A DNA stretch of 64,000 nt from an uncultured Thiotrichaceae bacterium (GCA_964531165.1 CAZHEA010000007.1:2956-66955), one strand, 5' to 3'; counted from the first letter of the stretch, positions 11,006 to 20,674 are shown. A program made the numbers and translations. Notes: generated by a model from the letters alone, not told the origin.

Positions 11006-11520
11006 TGTTTGGCACGCAGTTGTTGGTCGAGGTAAAGTGCAATGCGGGAAATTTTGGTAATGGCTCGTACTGAAAGTGTAGCACCTGAAATCCCATCTAT
11101 GTGGCGATCCAGCTGTAAGTCATTATTTATGCTTGCCTGTAGAAATTGTTTGGTGAAAAAGTCATGACGTATTTCATCGCCGCGGCTTTCACGAAACGCC
11201 AGAACTTTTATGCTTTCAAGTTTGCCGTGGTTGATAACAACGCCAATGGTAATGGGTTTTTCTTTACCAATTTCATCTAATATCCAGGCGGTTTTTTGCT
11301 GCTGTTTCCAGTAGCGTAAACGCAGTTTTCTAAAATCATGTGCGAGAATTTGTTTAATATTTTCACGGTCAGTTTTGGTGAGCCAGAGTGCTTTGGCTTT
11401 AGGTTGATTCTCTGCAAAGGCTAACTGGATAAATGCATCAGGCTGAAGATACTGACCACCAGCGTAAGCCGGTAGTTGTAAGCAGCACAGAACAATAAAA
11501 ATAAAGCGTGTAAAAATCAT
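11002..11520 (-). CDS. Exported FMN-binding domain protein (ApbE-flavinylated type)
   Basis: Signal peptide. It has the GISGATLS motif (the Thr in S-G-A-T is the covalent FMN attachment site in NqrC/RnfG-type FMN_bind domains). Confidence 0.6.
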   Translation of the reverse strand: MIFTRFIFIVLCCLQLPAYAGGQYLQPDAFIQLAFAENQPKAKALWLTKTDRENIKQILAHDFRKLRLRYWKQQQKTAWILDEIGKEKPITIGVVINHGKLESIKVLAFRESRGDEIRHDFFTKQFLQASINNDLQLDRHIDGISGATLSVRAITKISRIALYLDQQLRAKQ

Positions 11521-11599
11521 GGGGGCGCATCATACCAGTTGTTGGCGAAGTGAGAAACCTACGTGAGCATAATGCATTCGCAGGTTTCTCAGTCGGCAT

Positions 11600-12850
11600 T
11601 TAGAACTGGTAGCCGACTCCCAGCATAAAGCCATCGTCATCCGTGCCTGCCTTATCCAGTAACTGATAGTTTGCTTTCACAACCACATCTTCATGGGGCC
11701 AGTAGCTAAAGCCAAAATCGGTCTGATTGCGCTGTGTATCATTCGCGCTGTTAACCATATTATCCCAGCTGCTCTGGCGTGCATATATACCCCACTGAGA
11801 CGTAAATTTGTAAGAGGGCTCTACATACCAGCCGCTTTGCTCGTCAGAGCCTAGGCTTTTCGGTCCGTTACCGCTTAAGTCCCAGCTCGCATACAGAGCG
11901 CGTAATGCAAACGGTCCGGTTAGCCAAACCGCATGAGTCTCCAACAGGCTCGCACTTCCCGCAGCGGCATCGGTGCTTTGAGTAATATCACGTTGGTACT
12001 GCATAGTCGCGCCCAGTTCTACGCCTGCTGCACCCGTCCATTTCAGGCGTGCTGTGTAGGCAGGGTCCTGCATTGGCGCTTTGCTTACACTGGTACGACC
12101 ACCACGAACAGTATAGTCATCGCCAACCTGTAAGCCGGAATGCATGGCCAGATCATAGCTAAATGCGTCGCCAAAACGGCCGCTGAAGCTCACGCCACCT
12201 TCACGCCAGGTGGTGGGAATAATGTACTTTTCTACATTATTACGCTCAACACCGTAAAAAGTGGGTGGCTCGTGGGTTTCGTTAACCATTCCAACAGGGA
12301 CCAGAATAATACCTGCACGGACTGAGTTATTGTCACTTACATCAAATTCAAGAAAAGCCTGTTCCATGGAAACTTCGCCAGAGCCTTCACCTTCCGTTTT
12401 AACTTGTGAGTGCTCAATTTCCAGTTCTGACCAGAAGCGAATTTTGTCACTGAACTCATGACCCATGAATAAAATAAAGCGATGCAAGTTAATTATTTTG
12501 GTGCTGTCAGTGTTGATGTAATGCAGTTCACCATAACCACCAATCGTAGTATTGCCTTTAGAGCCATGAGTGCCAAAGGTTTTATCGCGTGCTGTTTCTG
12601 CGCTGCTATGACTGTGTGAAGATTGTTCACCTGACGTATTTTGAGTGGGAGATGTATTTATATTACCTGATTCAAGCATATCTGCTGTGGCTTCCAGACG
12701 CTCTAAAATAATTTTGTTTTCTGCTTTGAGGGCATCAAGCTGTAGTTGAAGACTGTCTGATTCTGCTGAAATGGCATTCGTTGATGCCAGTAATAGTGCG
12801 CTGGCAATGGCACTTTTTAAGGTAGATGATACAAATTTACGGCTTTTCAT
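11600..12850 (-). CDS. Outer-membrane porin with N-terminal coiled-coil (DcaP-like family; tentative)
   Basis: Signal peptide. A ~45-aa coiled-coil (LQLQLDALKAENKIILERLEA) is followed by a beta-barrel ending in ..GVGYQF. Confidence 0.5.
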   Translation of the reverse strand: MKSRKFVSSTLKSAIASALLLASTNAISAESDSLQLQLDALKAENKIILERLEATADMLESGNINTSPTQNTSGEQSSHSHSSAETARDKTFGTHGSKGNTTIGGYGELHYINTDSTKIINLHRFILFMGHEFSDKIRFWSELEIEHSQVKTEGEGSGEVSMEQAFLEFDVSDNNSVRAGIILVPVGMVNETHEPPTFYGVERNNVEKYIIPTTWREGGVSFSGRFGDAFSYDLAMHSGLQVGDDYTVRGGRTSVSKAPMQDPAYTARLKWTGAAGVELGATMQYQRDITQSTDAAAGSASLLETHAVWLTGPFALRALYASWDLSGNGPKSLGSDEQSGWYVEPSYKFTSQWGIYARQSSWDNMVNSANDTQRNQTDFGFSYWPHEDVVVKANYQLLDKAGTDDDGFMLGVGYQF

Positions 12851-14507: not shown

Positions 14508-15707
14508 TTATCGGCCCCAGGCAGACCCTGCAGTAATATAAAACACTGTATCCTCCGGACCGCGGGCGATATCTATACCCATATCAAATCCGTAACGTCG
14601 TGCAACCTGGTAACGAAAGCCCAGCCCCTGCGTGACGCGAGTGCTAGCATCAGCAAATGAACCGGTGTTATTACTGGCGCGCCCGGCACCAATAAACCCA
14701 AGCAGACTCCAGCGTGAATCTACCAGCCAGGTTAGTTCAGTTTCAAGCACACCAATCAACTCACCCTGATAACGTCTTGCGGGAATGCCGCGAAGCGTTA
14801 TCGACGGCGTTGCAAAGGGCGGTAACAATTTATTACTGTTGGCATATTCGCTGTGCAGTCTTAAGCCTGCACGCCAGTGATTATTGAGTGACCAGTAATT
14901 CAAACCTTTGAAAGTCGTGAGTTCATATTCAATATCGCTGCCAAAACTTTCACGATACCAAAATTGTTCAATACCATATTGGTAGCCTTCAGTGGGGGAG
15001 AAAATATTATCACGGTTATCAAATTCTAAATTTAATCCCAGTGCTGAAGTGGTGATATTGCGAGACAGTAAGGCTTTTAATTCGTCTTCAAATTCCGGTG
15101 GTAGCGTGCCGTCTAAAGTGCCCGTAGAAGCCGGTGAGATTCGGGCGTTAATATAACGTTGTGCAACCCCCCAGAAAAAGTTGCTGGAAGCGAGCTTAAA
15201 TTTAAGTGTTTGAAAAAGTCCGGAAGCCTGAGTGTTAATTTCAACGGGATCGGCCAGGCTAATATCGCCAGTGCCGTAAAAATCTAAATTCACATCGCCA
15301 TAACCAGCACCACCTAAATAGCGAATACGGCCCTGTTTAAAAAATCCCATGTGCCCACCACCGGCAAACCAGGATTGATTACCCGTTGCTGCAGCGGCGG
15401 CAACCGATATGCTGGGCGGTAATAGGTGTCTGGCCGCGCCACTGTCGGCTTTTTTCATGGCCTTTAAGCGTTTGAGTTTCTCGTCTTCGGTTTCGTGAAA
15501 AAACAAACCCATCATGCCTAAACCGCCATCAACCGCCGGGTCGGTAATAATGATCGGTACGGGTAAAAAACCATAGGCGTTTTTTGACAGGTAATCTGAA
15601 GCATCGAAACGCCCGTCTAGCATATCAATAAATTGAGAGGCACTACTGCGACTGTATGCATTGGAGCTAAGCAGGCAAAGCATACTGAGAAAAATGCTGC
15701 TTTTCAT
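14508..15707 (-). CDS. Outer-membrane beta-barrel protein (Omp85/Bac_surface_Ag-like; tentative)
   Basis: Signal peptide. It has long alternating beta patterns, and LRGIPARRYQGE resembles the Omp85 loop-6 RG[FY] motif. No POTRA is evident. Low certainty. Confidence 0.4.
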   Translation of the reverse strand: MKSSIFLSMLCLLSSNAYSRSSASQFIDMLDGRFDASDYLSKNAYGFLPVPIIITDPAVDGGLGMMGLFFHETEDEKLKRLKAMKKADSGAARHLLPPSISVAAAAATGNQSWFAGGGHMGFFKQGRIRYLGGAGYGDVNLDFYGTGDISLADPVEINTQASGLFQTLKFKLASSNFFWGVAQRYINARISPASTGTLDGTLPPEFEDELKALLSRNITTSALGLNLEFDNRDNIFSPTEGYQYGIEQFWYRESFGSDIEYELTTFKGLNYWSLNNHWRAGLRLHSEYANSNKLLPPFATPSITLRGIPARRYQGELIGVLETELTWLVDSRWSLLGFIGAGRASNNTGSFADASTRVTQGLGFRYQVARRYGFDMGIDIARGPEDTVFYITAGSAWGR

Positions 15708-15732: not shown

Positions 15733-17973
15733 TTAACGTCGTCTACCACCACCCGCTCTCGCCCGGTTAAATTGCTGACGGCGTTGTGCACCCTGCTGGC
15801 GCGACTGGTAACTGCGCTGTAATTGTTGTCGATTGTAGCCACTTCCGGCTTTATTTGCGGGGCGTTGCTGGGCGGGTTTCTGCCAGTCGTTATTGTTTCT
15901 GTTCTGCCAGCCACTATTGGTTTTACGATGCAGATTGCCCTGTTTGTCGGCATACACATTATTTTTACGGTTGGTTGCCGGGCGTGCTTTTGCCAGTTTG
16001 TTGGCAGGTGTAATGCGTGCCGCGTTACGGCGATTTTTATATAAATTGCGTGATGCTTGAGCCTTTACGGGCTGAATTGAAGGACTTTTACCGGGTCGGT
16101 TAATGGGTCTGTATCCGGGTCTATATCCAGAGTAAACACCACGGCGATAACCGTGATAATAAGCATGTCGATAGCCATAATAATGATGAGGGCCCCACCA
16201 GCCACCACCGTACCAGCCGCCGTAACCAATACTAAAAGTGAACGGGCCACTGCTGTAACTCATGCCATAACCCCAGCCCATATAGGGGTTCCAGCGAGCG
16301 TAATAACCATAGGTTGCCGGGTAAGGGTAGTAGGCGTGCTGGTACCAGCCGGGATAGTAGTAACCGGTGCCATAAACAATGGTTGAGCCATAAACATAGG
16401 TGTTGGTATAACCGGGGGTGTAACCCACATAAACCACTTCCGGCTCAGCCTTGTATATTTTTACAAAGGTAATGTTATACATGGGAGAGTCGGCGGGGAT
16501 GGTGTAAATTTCATCGGGCACCGAGGTGGCAATGGTCCATTTGCCTTTGGGCGACGTGGCAGCAAACCACACCGCGTTATCCACTGCATAAAATAAATTT
16601 TGAGAAACCTTAATTACTGGGGTGGCGGTATTCACCGCATAACTTAAGGCGGTGCTGAGAATAGGCTGAAAAATCGGTTCGCCATCATACTCAACGGTTA
16701 AGGAGGCGAGGCTACGATTAATGGCTGCAGTTTGTGGGATTTGAGCATTGAGTACCGCTTCTTTGGCAATCTCAGTGCCGGGTACGGCATACAGCACCGT
16801 ACCCATGTGTGATTTCTCCGGGATTTTTGCAAATGCGGCGGGTAGTGATTTTCCCGCGACATATTTCCATGGTCCCTGCATTTTATCACTGTTGTACCAG
16901 CGCCCCGCGAGTAGTACATAGTATTTTTGATGACTAATGTCGAGCAGCACATCACTTTCAGTGTTGCTCATGTAAAGTAAATCTTTGACGTCATCAACCG
17001 GTTTAAACTCAGCTTTGCCGGTTGCAGAAATTAGCTCTGCGGGTTTGGTTCTAATAATAATTTTGGGTGGTGGTGCGTCTTTTTTGGTTGCGGCTGTTGT
17101 GTCGGCTTTCTTTTTATCAGACGATTTTTTACTGGCTTGATCTTCATCGGCCGATTTTTCAGCAATATCCTTTTCGCTCGGCTTGGGCTCCAAATCGGTA
17201 ATCGCACGGGGCACTTCTTTTGTAATGCTCCAGTCAGCATTTAAATCACTGGTGGTGTACCAGACTTTTTTATCCGCATTTAAATAATAAAGTTTTTCTG
17301 TGGGACTGAAAATAAGTGTGTACGGGGTGTTAACGACGCGTTTTAAACTGCGTTGCGGTATATCCTGCAGCTTAGGCTCGCCATCAATGGTAATTAAAAT
17401 AGCGGGCTCTTCTATAAAAATAATTTCCGGTGGCGCAGTGTTAATTTTTTTCGAGGAGTTGTGTAGCTGGTCCTCCAGCTTTAAGGTCGCGGTTAGTTGC
17501 GACATAGAAATTTCCATATTCCATTTTGGAATTTCCCGTTCCATTAGTTTTTCAAGCTTGCTGAGATTCTGGTCACCGGCATCGGGGATGCGGACATTGG
17601 TTATTTTGACATCAGCAATGGTGGCGGAGCGCTCAGCCCGGTTGACTTGTAAACGGGCATCAAACCAGATGGCACCGAATACGGGTTTGTCAGCATCGTT
17701 GAGTTCAACAGAAATTGCAGCACGGGCTTTTAACTGGTCGCCCTTTAATGATTCAGGCTGTGGCTGGTAGATGATGACCACGCCCTTACTGGTTTTGATT
17801 TCCTGAGGCCATTGCTTGGTTGCAGGGGCGATTTTTTCAGAGGATGTTTTTTCTAGCTTGTCTTTTTTCGCGGTATTTTTTTTATCAGTACCTTCATCAA
17901 GCGCATAAGCATGTGTACTGCTTAAAAGAATAATTGTGCAGAAAAAAAATCGACTGATGATATTGTATGACAT
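15733..17973 (-). CDS. Large secreted protein with a Tyr/Gly/Trp-rich low-complexity domain and a Q/R/N/K-rich basic C-terminal tail (function unknown)
   Basis: Signal peptide (..SSTHAYALDEG). Residues ~505-635 are extremely Y/G/W/P-rich (YYYPGWYQHAYYPYPATYGYYARW...GYGGWYGGGWWGPHHYYGYRHAYYHGYRRGVYSGYRPGYRP). The final ~110 aa are Q/R/N/K-rich and end GGGRRR. No known domain was recognised. Confidence 0.5.
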   Translation of the reverse strand: MSYNIISRFFFCTIILLSSTHAYALDEGTDKKNTAKKDKLEKTSSEKIAPATKQWPQEIKTSKGVVIIYQPQPESLKGDQLKARAAISVELNDADKPVFGAIWFDARLQVNRAERSATIADVKITNVRIPDAGDQNLSKLEKLMEREIPKWNMEISMSQLTATLKLEDQLHNSSKKINTAPPEIIFIEEPAILITIDGEPKLQDIPQRSLKRVVNTPYTLIFSPTEKLYYLNADKKVWYTTSDLNADWSITKEVPRAITDLEPKPSEKDIAEKSADEDQASKKSSDKKKADTTAATKKDAPPPKIIIRTKPAELISATGKAEFKPVDDVKDLLYMSNTESDVLLDISHQKYYVLLAGRWYNSDKMQGPWKYVAGKSLPAAFAKIPEKSHMGTVLYAVPGTEIAKEAVLNAQIPQTAAINRSLASLTVEYDGEPIFQPILSTALSYAVNTATPVIKVSQNLFYAVDNAVWFAATSPKGKWTIATSVPDEIYTIPADSPMYNITFVKIYKAEPEVVYVGYTPGYTNTYVYGSTIVYGTGYYYPGWYQHAYYPYPATYGYYARWNPYMGWGYGMSYSSGPFTFSIGYGGWYGGGWWGPHHYYGYRHAYYHGYRRGVYSGYRPGYRPINRPGKSPSIQPVKAQASRNLYKNRRNAARITPANKLAKARPATNRKNNVYADKQGNLHRKTNSGWQNRNNNDWQKPAQQRPANKAGSGYNRQQLQRSYQSRQQGAQRRQQFNRARAGGGRRR

Positions 17974-18042: not shown

Positions 18043-18729
18043 TTAAAACATTAAGCCGACATCAAAGCGAAAATTAGTAAAGCCAGAAGAGCTAGAGGCC
18101 TGACTATAATCAATCCATTTTTTGCCTGCGGTAAAGCGTAAGAATACATTGTCTTTTACGTCAAATCGAAACCCGGCACTGGCGCCGTAGGTGAATTCGG
18201 TTGAAGTGAGGGTTGGCTGAAATGTGTCGCAGATATAGCCCCACCACGGGTCATACCAGCAGCCGGTTTGTGGCGGGCCGGTTGGGATATTAGTGTCGAT
18301 ATAAGTCAGACCCGCAGAAACACCAACGAAGGGCGTAAAGCGTTTTTTCATGAAATTATAAATGCCGGTAAATACCATGCTATTGGAGTACAGGTTGCCA
18401 TAGACTGTTTCTTTATTACCGTTTTCCAGCACCCGCGTGCCCGAATAGTTAACATCGCCCCAGTTAAGGTCAAAATCTAATGCCCAGTGTTCATCGAAAT
18501 TGTAGCCAACACCAAAACCGAAAGCATAATCCTCATTAATGGTTGCATCAGAGCCACCATCAAAATTAATTTGCTTTGATTCGATATACTTGGTCTGAAA
18601 TGAAATCTCCCAGCGATCTTTACGGTCGCTTAATGACATAATGTCCGCACTGAATGCGACACCAGAAAAAGCCATTAAAAACAGATAAAGGATTGGGCGT
18701 TGTAATGATGAGTTTAAAAAATGTTTCAT
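18043..18729 (-). CDS. Small outer-membrane beta-barrel protein (OmpW/OmpA-barrel-like)
   Basis: Signal peptide and a ~200-aa alternating beta pattern ending ..DVGLMF (C-terminal Phe). Confidence 0.5.
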   Translation of the reverse strand: MKHFLNSSLQRPILYLFLMAFSGVAFSADIMSLSDRKDRWEISFQTKYIESKQINFDGGSDATINEDYAFGFGVGYNFDEHWALDFDLNWGDVNYSGTRVLENGNKETVYGNLYSNSMVFTGIYNFMKKRFTPFVGVSAGLTYIDTNIPTGPPQTGCWYDPWWGYICDTFQPTLTSTEFTYGASAGFRFDVKDNVFLRFTAGKKWIDYSQASSSSGFTNFRFDVGLMF

Positions 18730-18925: not shown

Positions 18926-19498
18926 ATGTTGAATACAGTAGCAAAAATATTATTTATACTCTCCTCAGCATTGTTTGTGTTCTCGTGCAGTAATGTTAAA
19001 AGCACTTATGACTATGATCGCGATGTTGATTTTGCAGCAGTTAAAACCTATCAGTGGGACAGGCAGCCATCTAAGGCGTTTACTCAGGCAAACCCGCTAA
19101 TTGCAAAACGAATTGTGAAAGCGATTGAAGCTAACCTTAAAAGAAAAGGCCTGATAGAAGCTGAAGCGGCGGATATTAAAATCAGCTATCAGGTGAGTTT
19201 TGAGAAAAAACTCAGTAGCAGTAATGTTACAGGTGGTATTGGCATGAGTGTGGGGCGTTATAACCGCGGCTCAATAGGTATTAGCAGCGGTAATAGTATA
19301 CGTGAGACCACCGAAGGCACGTTGATGATCGATATGGTTTCGGCTAATCGGCAGAATTTAATCTGGCGCTCAATAACGACCAAGCCGGTATCGGCTAGAG
19401 ATGCGACACCGCAGGAGTCTGAGAAGCGTATTGGTCAGCTTATTTACAGGGTGTTTGATAATTTTCCGCCGGAACAGAAGCCAGCAGGAAGTGACTAA
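18926..19498 (+). CDS. Lipoprotein (DUF4136-like; tentative)
   Basis: Lipobox LFVFSCS. 190 aa. It is divergent from the OM-barrel cluster. Confidence 0.45.
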   Translation: MLNTVAKILFILSSALFVFSCSNVKSTYDYDRDVDFAAVKTYQWDRQPSKAFTQANPLIAKRIVKAIEANLKRKGLIEAEAADIKISYQVSFEKKLSSSNVTGGIGMSVGRYNRGSIGISSGNSIRETTEGTLMIDMVSANRQNLIWRSITTKPVSARDATPQESEKRIGQLIYRVFDNFPPEQKPAGSD

Positions 19499-19798: not shown

Positions 19799-20674
19799 AT
19801 GTTTCGTGGCAGTATGGTGGCGCTGGTAACACCCATGCACCCAGATGGGTCAGTCGACTTTGATAGCCTGAGTCAGCTGATTGAATTTCATATAGAAAAT
19901 GGCACCAGTGCGATTGTGTCGATGGGCACCACCGGTGAATCAGCAACCTTAGATGAAAAAGAACATTGCGAGGTTATTCGGCGTACGGTTGAAATGGTAA
20001 ATCAGCGGATACCGGTTATTGCCGGTACCGGTGCAAATTCCACCACTGAAGCCATTACTTTGACCCGATGTGCGATGCAGGCCGGTGCTGATGCCTGTCT
20101 GCTGGTGACACCTTATTATAATAAGCCGACTCAGGAAGGCCTGTATCTGCATCACAAGCTAATTGCGGAAACCGTTCCTGTACCGCAAATTCTTTATAAT
20201 GTACCCGGACGTACCGCCTGCGATATGCTGCCGGAAACCGTGGCACGTTTGTCAAAAGTCTCTAATATTATTGGCATTAAAGAAGCCACCGGTGATTTAT
20301 CACGGCTCACGCAAATTCGTGAATTATGCGGTGATAACTTTGATGTTTTTTCCGGTGATGACGATACCGGCACAGAGTTTATGCTGCAGGGTGGTAATGG
20401 GGTGATATCGGTTACTAATAACGTTGCGCCGAAAGCGATGGCTGAAATGTGTGCCGCGGCGCTGGCTGGTGATCGTGAGAAAGCGTTGGAACTTAATCAG
20501 CCTTTAACCGGTCTGCATAATGACCTGTTTGTTGAGGCTAACCCCATTCCGGTGAAATGGGCGCTAACCGAAATGGGGAAAATGCCCGCGGGCATTCGTT
20601 TACCACTCACCCCATTATCTGAGCAATATCATGAAACACTGCGCGCGGCGATGCGTCAGGCGGGTGTGCTGTAA
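19799..20674 (+). CDS. dapA: 4-hydroxy-tetrahydrodipicolinate synthase
   Basis: [13 protein letters not shown]...[20 protein letters not shown] closely parallels E. coli DapA. Confidence 0.9.

Follow-up and report, generated by a model that had tools for sequence, protein, structure and literature searches.

The gene described here lies in a 64,000-nucleotide stretch of DNA from an uncultured Thiotrichaceae bacterium (GCA_964531165.1, CAZHEA010000007.1:2956-66955), which we refer to as the window. It occupies positions 15733..17973 on the (-) strand, as do all parts of the gene listed below, and in the list of open reading frames (ORFs) it encodes a 746-residue Sec-exported protein belonging to a widespread family without a name. 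A preliminary description of this DNA had drawn attention to the C-terminal end of the protein at positions 15733-16460, which correspond to residues 505-746 plus the stop codon, and all peptide strings quoted there were found in this ORF. Our analysis indicates that the Tyr-rich part of this region is a position-constrained, probably beta-structured module rather than a drifting low-complexity sequence.

Computing the amino acid composition confirmed that the region is indeed extreme for an exported bacterial protein. Residues 514-623 (window 16105-16434) comprise 110 amino acids, among them 30 Tyr (27%), 23 Gly (21%), 9 Pro (8%) and 6 Trp (5%), with not a single Asp, Glu or Lys. The 123 residues that follow (624-746; window 15736-16104) consist of 16% Arg, 14% Asn, 13% Gln, 12% Ala and 8% Lys, and with only two Asp and no Glu they carry a net charge of +28. 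The figures first given, about 130 residues with about 30% Tyr followed by about 110 residues rich in Q/R/N/K, were essentially right, if slightly off. Given the mean Tyr content of 2.9% over 60 ORFs of the window, the binomial probability of at least 30 Tyr in 110 residues is about 1e-20, and the next Tyr-richest 110-residue stretch in any ORF of the window reaches 11%. Shannon entropy amounts to 3.28 bits in the Tyr-rich part and 3.60 bits in the tail, against 4.02 bits in the N-terminal domains. Even within its own family the protein is unusual, its 27% Tyr exceeding the 95th percentile (family median 19%, 5th-95th percentile 14-25%). Tandem Repeats Finder returned merely two trivial two-copy matches; the composition therefore does not derive from a DNA microsatellite.

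Such a sequence could in principle be an artefact of reading frame or assembly, a frameshift having created a spurious low-complexity C-terminus, and the preliminary description had itself named this as what would refute its reading. Errors of this kind do occur in the region: four metagenomic homologues (P0132, P0133, P0217 and P0246) run into unrelated sequence, either inside the basic tail or past it, which probably reflects frameshifts or assembly errors in compositionally unusual DNA. Unlike these, the copy in the window has a tail free of frameshifts. Its C-terminus can be aligned position for position with those of hundreds of homologues, up to the terminal RR-COOH, and the frame is common to over 1,000 cluster representatives. 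Nucleotide identity at codon positions 1/2/3 of the Tyr-rich part is 0.87/0.92/0.46 relative to a syntenic relative (L082) and 0.85/0.86/0.41 relative to a 59%-identical relative (L084); for the tail the values are 0.75/0.76/0.49 and 0.68/0.69/0.35, respectively, and the N-terminal domains display a similar pattern in both comparisons. The much greater divergence at third positions shows that the frame is genuine and that purifying selection acts on it. No long alternative ORF was found over the region, the longest in any other frame being 82 amino acids, and an identical protein was recovered independently from the Logan assembly of a sequencing run. The artefact explanation is excluded.

The family to which the protein belongs is large. 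At least 2908 homologues were found at E<=1e-3; the best 120 share 46-100% identity with the window protein, and in 99 of these the match spans 90% or more of the length. When the last 242 residues were made into a HMMER profile and searched against 1.84 billion representatives (clusters at 50% identity), 1121 of these scored at E<=1e-3, 559 of which passed E<=1e-10, and among the 150 best profile matches listed, each one inspected proved to be a member of the same family or a fragment of one. The 281 genome loci come from Gammaproteobacteria, Desulfobacterota, Bacteroidota, Gemmatimonadota, Acidobacteriota, Verrucomicrobiota, Campylobacterota and Planctomycetota, with members also in Pseudoalteromonas, Paraburkholderia and rhizobial chromids. 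In spite of this spread, no Pfam domain was found in any of the best 120 homologues or, at E<=1, in 16 diverse members; the window protein matched neither Pfam nor NCBIfam, the family profile matched no PDB sequence, and our literature search found nothing on the family. Within the reach of these searches, neither the family nor its C-terminal module has been described, be it by a domain model, a structure or a publication.

The names that databases do attach to members were unsupported by profile tests. RefSeq calls some of them "carbohydrate-binding family V/XII", a name given by PGAP. What the family has in common with CBM5/12 chitin-binding domains is small beta units that expose Trp and Tyr, but neither a CBM_5_12 nor any other carbohydrate-binding Pfam match appeared in the 16 members, nor did any NCBIfam match (both at E<=1), and the name appears to be a legacy assignment at the superfamily level. 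A vent-metagenome homologue (P0010) is named "fibroin heavy chain". Here the likeness is confined to a Gly/Tyr-rich composition: GAGAGS-type repeats and sequence similarity are both absent, the protein is bacterial and exported, and its name is a mis-annotation prompted by composition. "SH3 domain-containing protein", a third RefSeq name, is used for rhizobial members with an N-terminal SH3_3 domain.

To describe conservation along the protein we took, for each column of an alignment of 74 genome-derived homologues from at least eight phyla, 36-53% identical to the window protein, the frequency of the most common residue and averaged it over each segment. By this measure, conservation peaks in the Tyr/Gly/Trp/Pro-rich sequence of residues 504-584 (16222..16464), which we call the Y-core and whose consensus reads VVYVGYTPGY...YVY..T.VYGTGYYYPPWYG.YYYPRP.TWGFHV.YNPWTGW.FG.S.S.G.F.F. 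Conservation of residues 514-580 reaches 0.72 with 0% gaps, compared with 0.51-0.66 for the folded N-terminal domains, and some 40 positions of the Y-core, occupied by Tyr, Gly, Trp or Pro, vary little or not at all. The Y-core is the most conserved, gap-free segment across at least eight diderm phyla and not a typical fast-evolving low-complexity sequence. When residues 490-746 were modelled with AlphaFold2 (AF2) from 149 more diverse sequences, the second of two such jobs, the Y-core was predicted to form beta-strands at residues 503-509, 514-519, 554-562, 566-574 and 579-584, with block values of the predicted local distance difference test (pLDDT) of 50-83, those of the beta-hairpins being 70-83.

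Past the Y-core, residues 585-623 (16105..16221) hold a G/W motif, GGWY.GGWWGP, succeeded by GYRx repeats with a period of four; the family consensus of this part is GYRRGYRHGYRRG..AGYRAGYRAG. This is a true low-complexity, Tyr-Arg-rich stretch, with a conservation of 0.52 and indels over residues 581-623 and with pLDDT values of 41-48 in both AF2 runs. This stretch is absent or replaced in members from Pseudoalteromonas and Agrobacterium. Rhizobial members of about 855 residues, such as L087:3752-6316 from Agrobacterium tumefaciens pAtAF1_95, carry instead a run of hairpin-like "YNP.TG" repeats after the core, and they possess the extra N-terminal bacterial SH3_3 domain mentioned above.

The basic tail alternates between variable and conserved parts. 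A variable polycationic linker (linker 1, residues 624-666; 15976..16104; conservation 0.33, 23% gaps) contains a small conserved motif, "NLY....N..R", whose N643, Y645 and R653 are invariant among close homologues. It leads to a beta mini-domain (residues 667-698; 15880..15975) with the consensus R.NNVYADR.GNV.R....GW..R....W and a conservation of 0.57, which is kept in every member inspected, distant ones included, and which AF2 models as a sheet of three to four strands at residues 673-698 with pLDDT 93-96. Linker 2 (residues 699-714; 15832..15879) is rich in Q/N/K/P and variable, with a conservation of 0.16 and large indels, and is far longer in many homologues. The protein closes with a basic helix and a Gly-rich end terminating in RR(R)-COOH (residues 715-746; 15736..15831; consensus L.RS.Q.RQRG.QR...). 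Conservation of residues 716-746, L.RS.Q.RQRG.QR...GGGRRR, is 0.53, and AF2 predicts a helix at residues 715-740 with pLDDT 78-94. The RR(R) C-terminus occurs in 154 of 169 homologues (104/108 close and 50/61 distant ones). Members from Pseudoalteromonas and Agrobacterium retain the core, the mini-domain and the helix without the GYR repeats, and sometimes without the GGGRRR end. Across the family the net charge of the tail ranges from +13 to +38 (median +21 to +23), while the sequence and length of the linkers vary. A C-terminal sorting signal of the LPXTG, PEP-CTERM or GlyGly-CTERM kind was rejected: the terminal RR(R) is present, but a hydrophobic segment near the C-terminus is absent.

The Y-core resembles the region that follows the helical repeats in DUF3300 proteins, a likeness that we put to the test. 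E. coli YacH, a DUF3300 protein, aligned with the C-terminal profile of the family exactly after its helical repeats, albeit weakly. A search for YacH homologues gave just near-identical E. coli and Shigella sequences, and a profile of DUF3300 C-termini was built from tblastn matches on plasmids and chromids (n=8: Cupriavidus, Ralstonia, Ensifer, Rhizobium, Sinorhizobium, Qingshengfaniella, Caballeronia and E. coli), leaving out one mis-framed ORF (L089). Comparison of the family C-terminus with this profile by hhalign gave a probability of 91.4%, an E of 9e-7 and a score of 52.1. Control scores were 11.8+-1.8 after column shuffling, 18.3+-5.2 (maximum 36.3) after shuffling of 40-column blocks, and 18.4 for the reversed template. 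With a score so far above the shuffles, the similarity rests on the order of residues and not on composition alone. The Y-core by itself scored a probability of 85% and an E of 6e-6, with 39% identity over 59 columns. We conclude from these profile comparisons that homology between the first 60 or so residues of the Y-core and the C-terminal third of DUF3300/YacH is probable. No match was obtained to PF11737, the DUF3300 model, which covers residues 75-333 of YacH, the aromatic region included: neither the window protein nor any of 15 diverse homologues matched it at E<=1 (gathering score 25 bits), whereas YacH and three other DUF3300 proteins scored 158-300 bits with the same library.

Both families are exported, both share an aromatic, Pro- and Gly-rich core beginning "P.VVYV..Y.P..VYG...YP.YYYP", and in both the core is followed by a long basic tail rich in N/Q/R/G. 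Rhizobial DUF3300 tails close in GGGRGGGGRR-COOH (as at L091 and L094), and those of Caballeronia, Cupriavidus and Qingshengfaniella also end in RR, the last of these (L092) as ...GGKIKRR. For the tails we claim analogy, not homology. The tail mini-domain scored 9.8 against DUF3300 tails, no more than the shuffles on average, and for the 75 residues at the C-terminus the score was 15.2 where the shuffle maximum was 13.6, a difference graded as not significant. Other features separate the two families. The N-terminal two-thirds of DUF3300, made of helical "LAPIALYPD" repeats, is absent here and replaced by a TULIP-like domain and three beta repeats; the N-terminal 500 residues of our protein are beta-rich in the AF2 model and do not align with the DUF3300 helical region, the hhalign similarity beginning at the aromatic core. 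DUF3300 has a hydrophobic Gly/Ala segment where the present family has GPF.F.IG.GGWY.GGWWGP, and the mini-domain NNVYADR.GNV.R...GW is specific to the present family. At three loci (L091, L092 and L094, on rhizobial and Rhodobacterales replicons) a DUF2950 gene follows the DUF3300 gene, whereas the 25 families listed (of 28) among 32 same-strand neighbours downstream of genes of the present family do not include DUF2950.

The N-terminal two-thirds of the protein begins with a type I signal peptide without a lipobox (residues 1-24, ...SSTHAYA|LDEG; 17902..17973), read from the sequence. Hydrophobic N-terminal regions occur in 106 of the 112 full-length homologues, lipobox-like motifs in only seven. 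Outside the signal peptide no segment resembling a transmembrane helix was found, the highest mean Kyte-Doolittle value over 19 residues (1.34) lying within residues 1-24. A Lys/Thr/Glu-rich linker (residues 25-54; 17812..17901) is specific to the lineage, being absent or gapped in most homologues, and has AF2 pLDDT values below 50. In the full-length AF2 model, computed from a 120-sequence alignment, residues 55-520 are modelled with confidence.

Residues 55-178 (17440..17811) form an N-terminal domain in which a curved beta-sheet is combined with long helices, with pLDDT values mostly of 76-95, decreasing to about 69 at residues 171-180. This arrangement weakly resembles that of the TULIP superfamily (YceB/DUF1439, BPI/LBP, SMP, JHBP), whose members likewise pack a long curved antiparallel sheet on long helices. 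Among the matches in a Foldseek search of the PDB was YceB (3l6i; probability 1.0, E 0.02, TM-score 0.37), and the list of weak matches names YceB, LBP, BPI, BPIFA1, CETP, JHBP, P47 and SMP next to unrelated folds. Scores are low throughout (E 0.007-0.5, TM-score up to 0.37), sequence similarity is nil, and the likeness concerns residues 55-178 alone, not the C-terminal region. Three beta repeats of about 75 residues follow at residues 179-258, 301-380 and 411-490 (16465..17439, connecting segments included), recognised from sequence and alignment by the pattern "P..I....PA.LI..DG.P......L.Y..NT...V.....YY.L..G.WY......G.W..V..P". A variable acidic/Lys linker, residues 259-300, lies within this stretch. 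The repeats are modelled with pLDDT mostly of 80-97, and Foldseek found no significant match to them among PDB folds.

Directly upstream of the gene and on the same strand lies a gene for a small outer-membrane beta-barrel of 228 residues, OMP_b-brl (18043..18729 (-); PF13505, E 2e-11), which together with a DUF4136 gene (18926-19498 (+)) flanks the gene of interest; dapA adjoins. We surveyed neighbours of related genes by tblastn of the window neighbours against 80 loci, by all-against-all clustering of 712 ORFs, and by Pfam searches of 34 upstream and 32 downstream same-strand neighbours. OMP_b-brl was the commonest neighbour family, occupying the same-strand upstream position at five of 34 related loci. 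In L082, bamC is also found in the cluster of envelope genes made up of dapA, DUF4136 and OMP_b-brl, and in L084 OMP_b-brl and DUF4136 are still nearby.

How might the C-terminal module work? From its sequence and predicted structure, we picture the family as Sec-exported, soluble envelope proteins of diderm bacteria whose C-terminal module would have two functional halves. One would be the structured aromatic Y-core (residues ~504-584), composed of short Tyr/Gly/Trp/Pro beta-hairpins under strong positional constraint and presenting a rigid aromatic surface, probably self-associating or interface-seeking. The other would be an electrostatic tail of GYRx repeats, polycationic linkers, the beta mini-domain, the basic helix and the RR-COOH end, which would bind polyanions such as phospholipid or lipopolysaccharide (LPS) head groups, peptidoglycan or acidic exopolymers. 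Together, core and tail would hold the N-terminal part, that is, the TULIP-like and possibly lipid-binding domain with the three beta repeats, at the envelope. That the protein is fixed in this way to anionic envelope material is the account we tentatively prefer, while according it somewhat less than an even chance. Anchoring of the polybasic tail to anionic material, which the preliminary description had also envisaged, appears the most plausible reading of this part and fits a tail whose charge is conserved across the family while its sequence is not. Several hints point the same way: the SH3 domain in rhizobial members, the many TULIP lipid binders among the weak fold matches of the N-terminal domain, the recurrence of outer-membrane barrels as neighbours, and the effect of deleting yacH in E. 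coli. The yacH gene is Cpx-regulated, and its deletion improves survival in the polycation protamine (PMC9600279). Our search of the literature on DUF3300/YacH found incidental mention only.

A number of observations weigh against this preferred account. The first, full-length AF2 model assigned pLDDT values of 25-49 to residues 521-646, and judging from the models, the core may fold just as an oligomer, just on a partner, or never. A Foldseek search of the PDB with the C-terminal model (core and tail) produced no match at E <4, the TULIP resemblance of the N-terminal domain is weak at E 0.02 and TM-score 0.37, and the survey of neighbours yielded no operon partner common to the family. The homology to DUF3300 is drawn from about 60 columns of compositionally biased sequence and a template profile of eight sequences, the likeness of the GGGRR end to DUF3300 is statistically inseparable from composition, and the link to DUF3300 transfers no mechanism.

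We also considered a bolder proposal, to which we give a rather low probability: the Y-core and the polycationic RR-COOH tail would constitute a previously unrecognised, portable envelope module of at least two large exported families, the present one and DUF3300/YacH, in which the Tyr/Trp/Gly hairpins self-assemble or insert at an interface, be it that of a membrane or of peptidoglycan, while the cationic tail and the Tyr-Arg repeats form condensates with anionic polymers of the envelope. If this is true, bacteria would possess, outside the cytoplasm, an equivalent of the YG/RGG assemblies of eukaryotes, which would help to organise the envelope or to tolerate cationic peptides. At issue is a family of more than 1,000 clusters at 50% identity, spread across most diderm phyla, that lacks Pfam, NCBIfam and PDB coverage and carries misleading names, and whose best-conserved part resembles junk low-complexity sequence that masking filters hide, so that tblastn matches ended at residue ~545. 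A defined module linked to DUF3300/YacH is a target for a new domain model and for studies of envelope tethering. Should it self-assemble or bind LPS or peptidoglycan, it would represent a new anchoring principle and a useful Tyr-rich adhesive or affinity tag.

The preliminary description had likened the region to adhesive, phase-separating or amyloid-forming low-complexity domains. In that explanation, a sticky, disordered C-terminus would engage in multivalent Tyr-Arg and aromatic contacts to make a hydrogel, a condensate, an adhesive coat or an amyloid-like mesh in the periplasm or at the surface, its tail recruiting polyanions such as extracellular DNA (eDNA), LPS or extracellular polymeric substances (EPS). 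The 27% Tyr and 21% Gly, the period-4 GYRx repeats leading to an RGG-like Gly/Arg end, the pLDDT of 25-49 at residues 521-646 of the full-length model and of 41-48 at residues ~590-630 of the fragment model all agree with it, and attachment to particles would suit the origin of most homologues, which is in samples of marine sediment and hydrothermal vents. Mesh-forming YG-rich segments have moreover been proposed elsewhere, in a discussion of loop EL3 of Bacteroidetes BamA and of peroxisomal import (bioRxiv 10.1101/2025.01.31.636011). Applied to the region as a whole, however, the claim was not supported. The first ~80 residues are the most conserved and indel-free, with ~40 near-invariant positions, the opposite of the sticker-and-spacer drift of phase-separating domains; they are modelled as beta-hairpins when the alignment is diverse, and they have a probable homologue in DUF3300. 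Low-complexity behaviour proper is limited to the G/W and GYR stretch (residues ~585-623) and the tail linkers; just ~40 residues (GW/GYR) are low-complexity-like, and distant members do without them. Relative to prion-like domains, the low-entropy composition is present, whereas positional drift is confined to residues 585-666 and 699-714. The comparison systems, which besides BamA EL3 include the YG domain of PEX13 and FUS-type domains with their Tyr/Arg "stickers", share with our protein the extreme Tyr and Gly content, the juxtaposition of GYRx and RGG-like stretches and the partly low prediction confidence, but here most of the Tyr-rich stretch is position-conserved across phyla and predicted to be beta, while the ~40 repeat-like residues are dispensable in distant members. 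As for amyloids of the curli CsgA or Fap type, no imperfect repeats were found at the protein or DNA level beyond the GYRx stretch, and no csgEFG or fapF family occurs among the window neighbours or the same-strand neighbours of related loci; nor is a route across the outer membrane evident. We regard a condensate, adhesive or amyloid as unlikely, although possible mainly for the GYR/RGG portion.

Two further explanations assign the C-terminus to a specific partner, and both seem to us improbable. Only 25 nucleotides downstream of the 746-residue gene, with no terminator-like site found in between, begins a gene for an Omp85-superfamily barrel of 399 residues (14508..15707 (-)), and the two genes are probably co-transcribed in the window. 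The protein might thus be cargo of this barrel in a manner resembling two-partner secretion (TPS), with core and tail serving for targeting, as a plug or as an anchor. Relatives at 69% identity keep the two genes adjacent, a homologous barrel lies ~3 kb away in Colwellia (L076), and small outer-membrane barrels recur beside family genes. The Omp85-like gene is gone, however, at 59% identity (L084), and tblastn of the window neighbours found a homologue of the barrel at just two of 80 related genome loci, whereas the C-terminal module is universal in the family; as a family-wide partner the barrel was rejected, being a local feature. Its match to Omp85 is weak (PF01103, 26.6 bits), no POTRA domain was detected, and the 746-residue protein shows neither a TPS (haemagglutination-activity) domain nor any other Pfam match. 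Two-partner secretion of the TpsA/TpsB kind was accordingly discarded, the TPS domain, a POTRA pair and a conserved adjacency all being absent, and a cargo role is unlikely as a property of the family. We give a slightly smaller chance still to an extracytoplasmic binder of nucleic acid or polyphosphate (polyP), whose tail would bind eDNA, RNA or polyP specifically while the Y-core stacks on bases. The RGG-like Gly/Arg end and the net charge of +28 are in keeping with this, as are a PPK2 gene downstream at one related locus and the best Foldseek matches of the sheet and helix, dsRBD, PUR-repeat and SSB folds; yet all those structural matches have E >4 and amount to noise. Moreover, the protein is exported, genes for DNA uptake or biofilm matrix do not recur nearby, and charge alone cannot tell DNA from LPS, phospholipid or peptidoglycan. 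Whatever probability envelope anchoring and its rivals leave belongs to something else.

Some additional observations concern related loci and the rest of the window. Genes for lipid-active enzymes adjoin family genes in unrelated taxa, namely outer-membrane phospholipase A1, patatin, and a PLD-like protein with a fatty-acid cis-trans isomerase (CTI), at L002:4356-5405, L086:3139-3975 and L084:1-2991. These cases are anecdotal, and as such would fit a TULIP-like N-terminal domain. Tandem pairs of paralogues of the family occur at two Gemmatimonadota loci (L026:1973-6510 and L029:41-3752). A 3.6-kb contig binned as "Promethearchaeota archaeon" (L006, JAIWHJ010000288.1) encodes a family protein at 53% identity, the archaeal label being probably due to bin contamination. 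No Rfam family reached its gathering score in the 64-kb window. Local GC content rises to 0.50-0.53 at 11500-12250, in a porin O/P-like gene (11600-12850, -), compared with ~0.42 around it. Finally, the window can be placed in a marine gammaproteobacterial lineage related to symbionts of siboglinid tubeworms, since its DapA (19799-20674 (+)) shares 95% identity with the DapA of the "endosymbiont of Galathealinum brachiosum".

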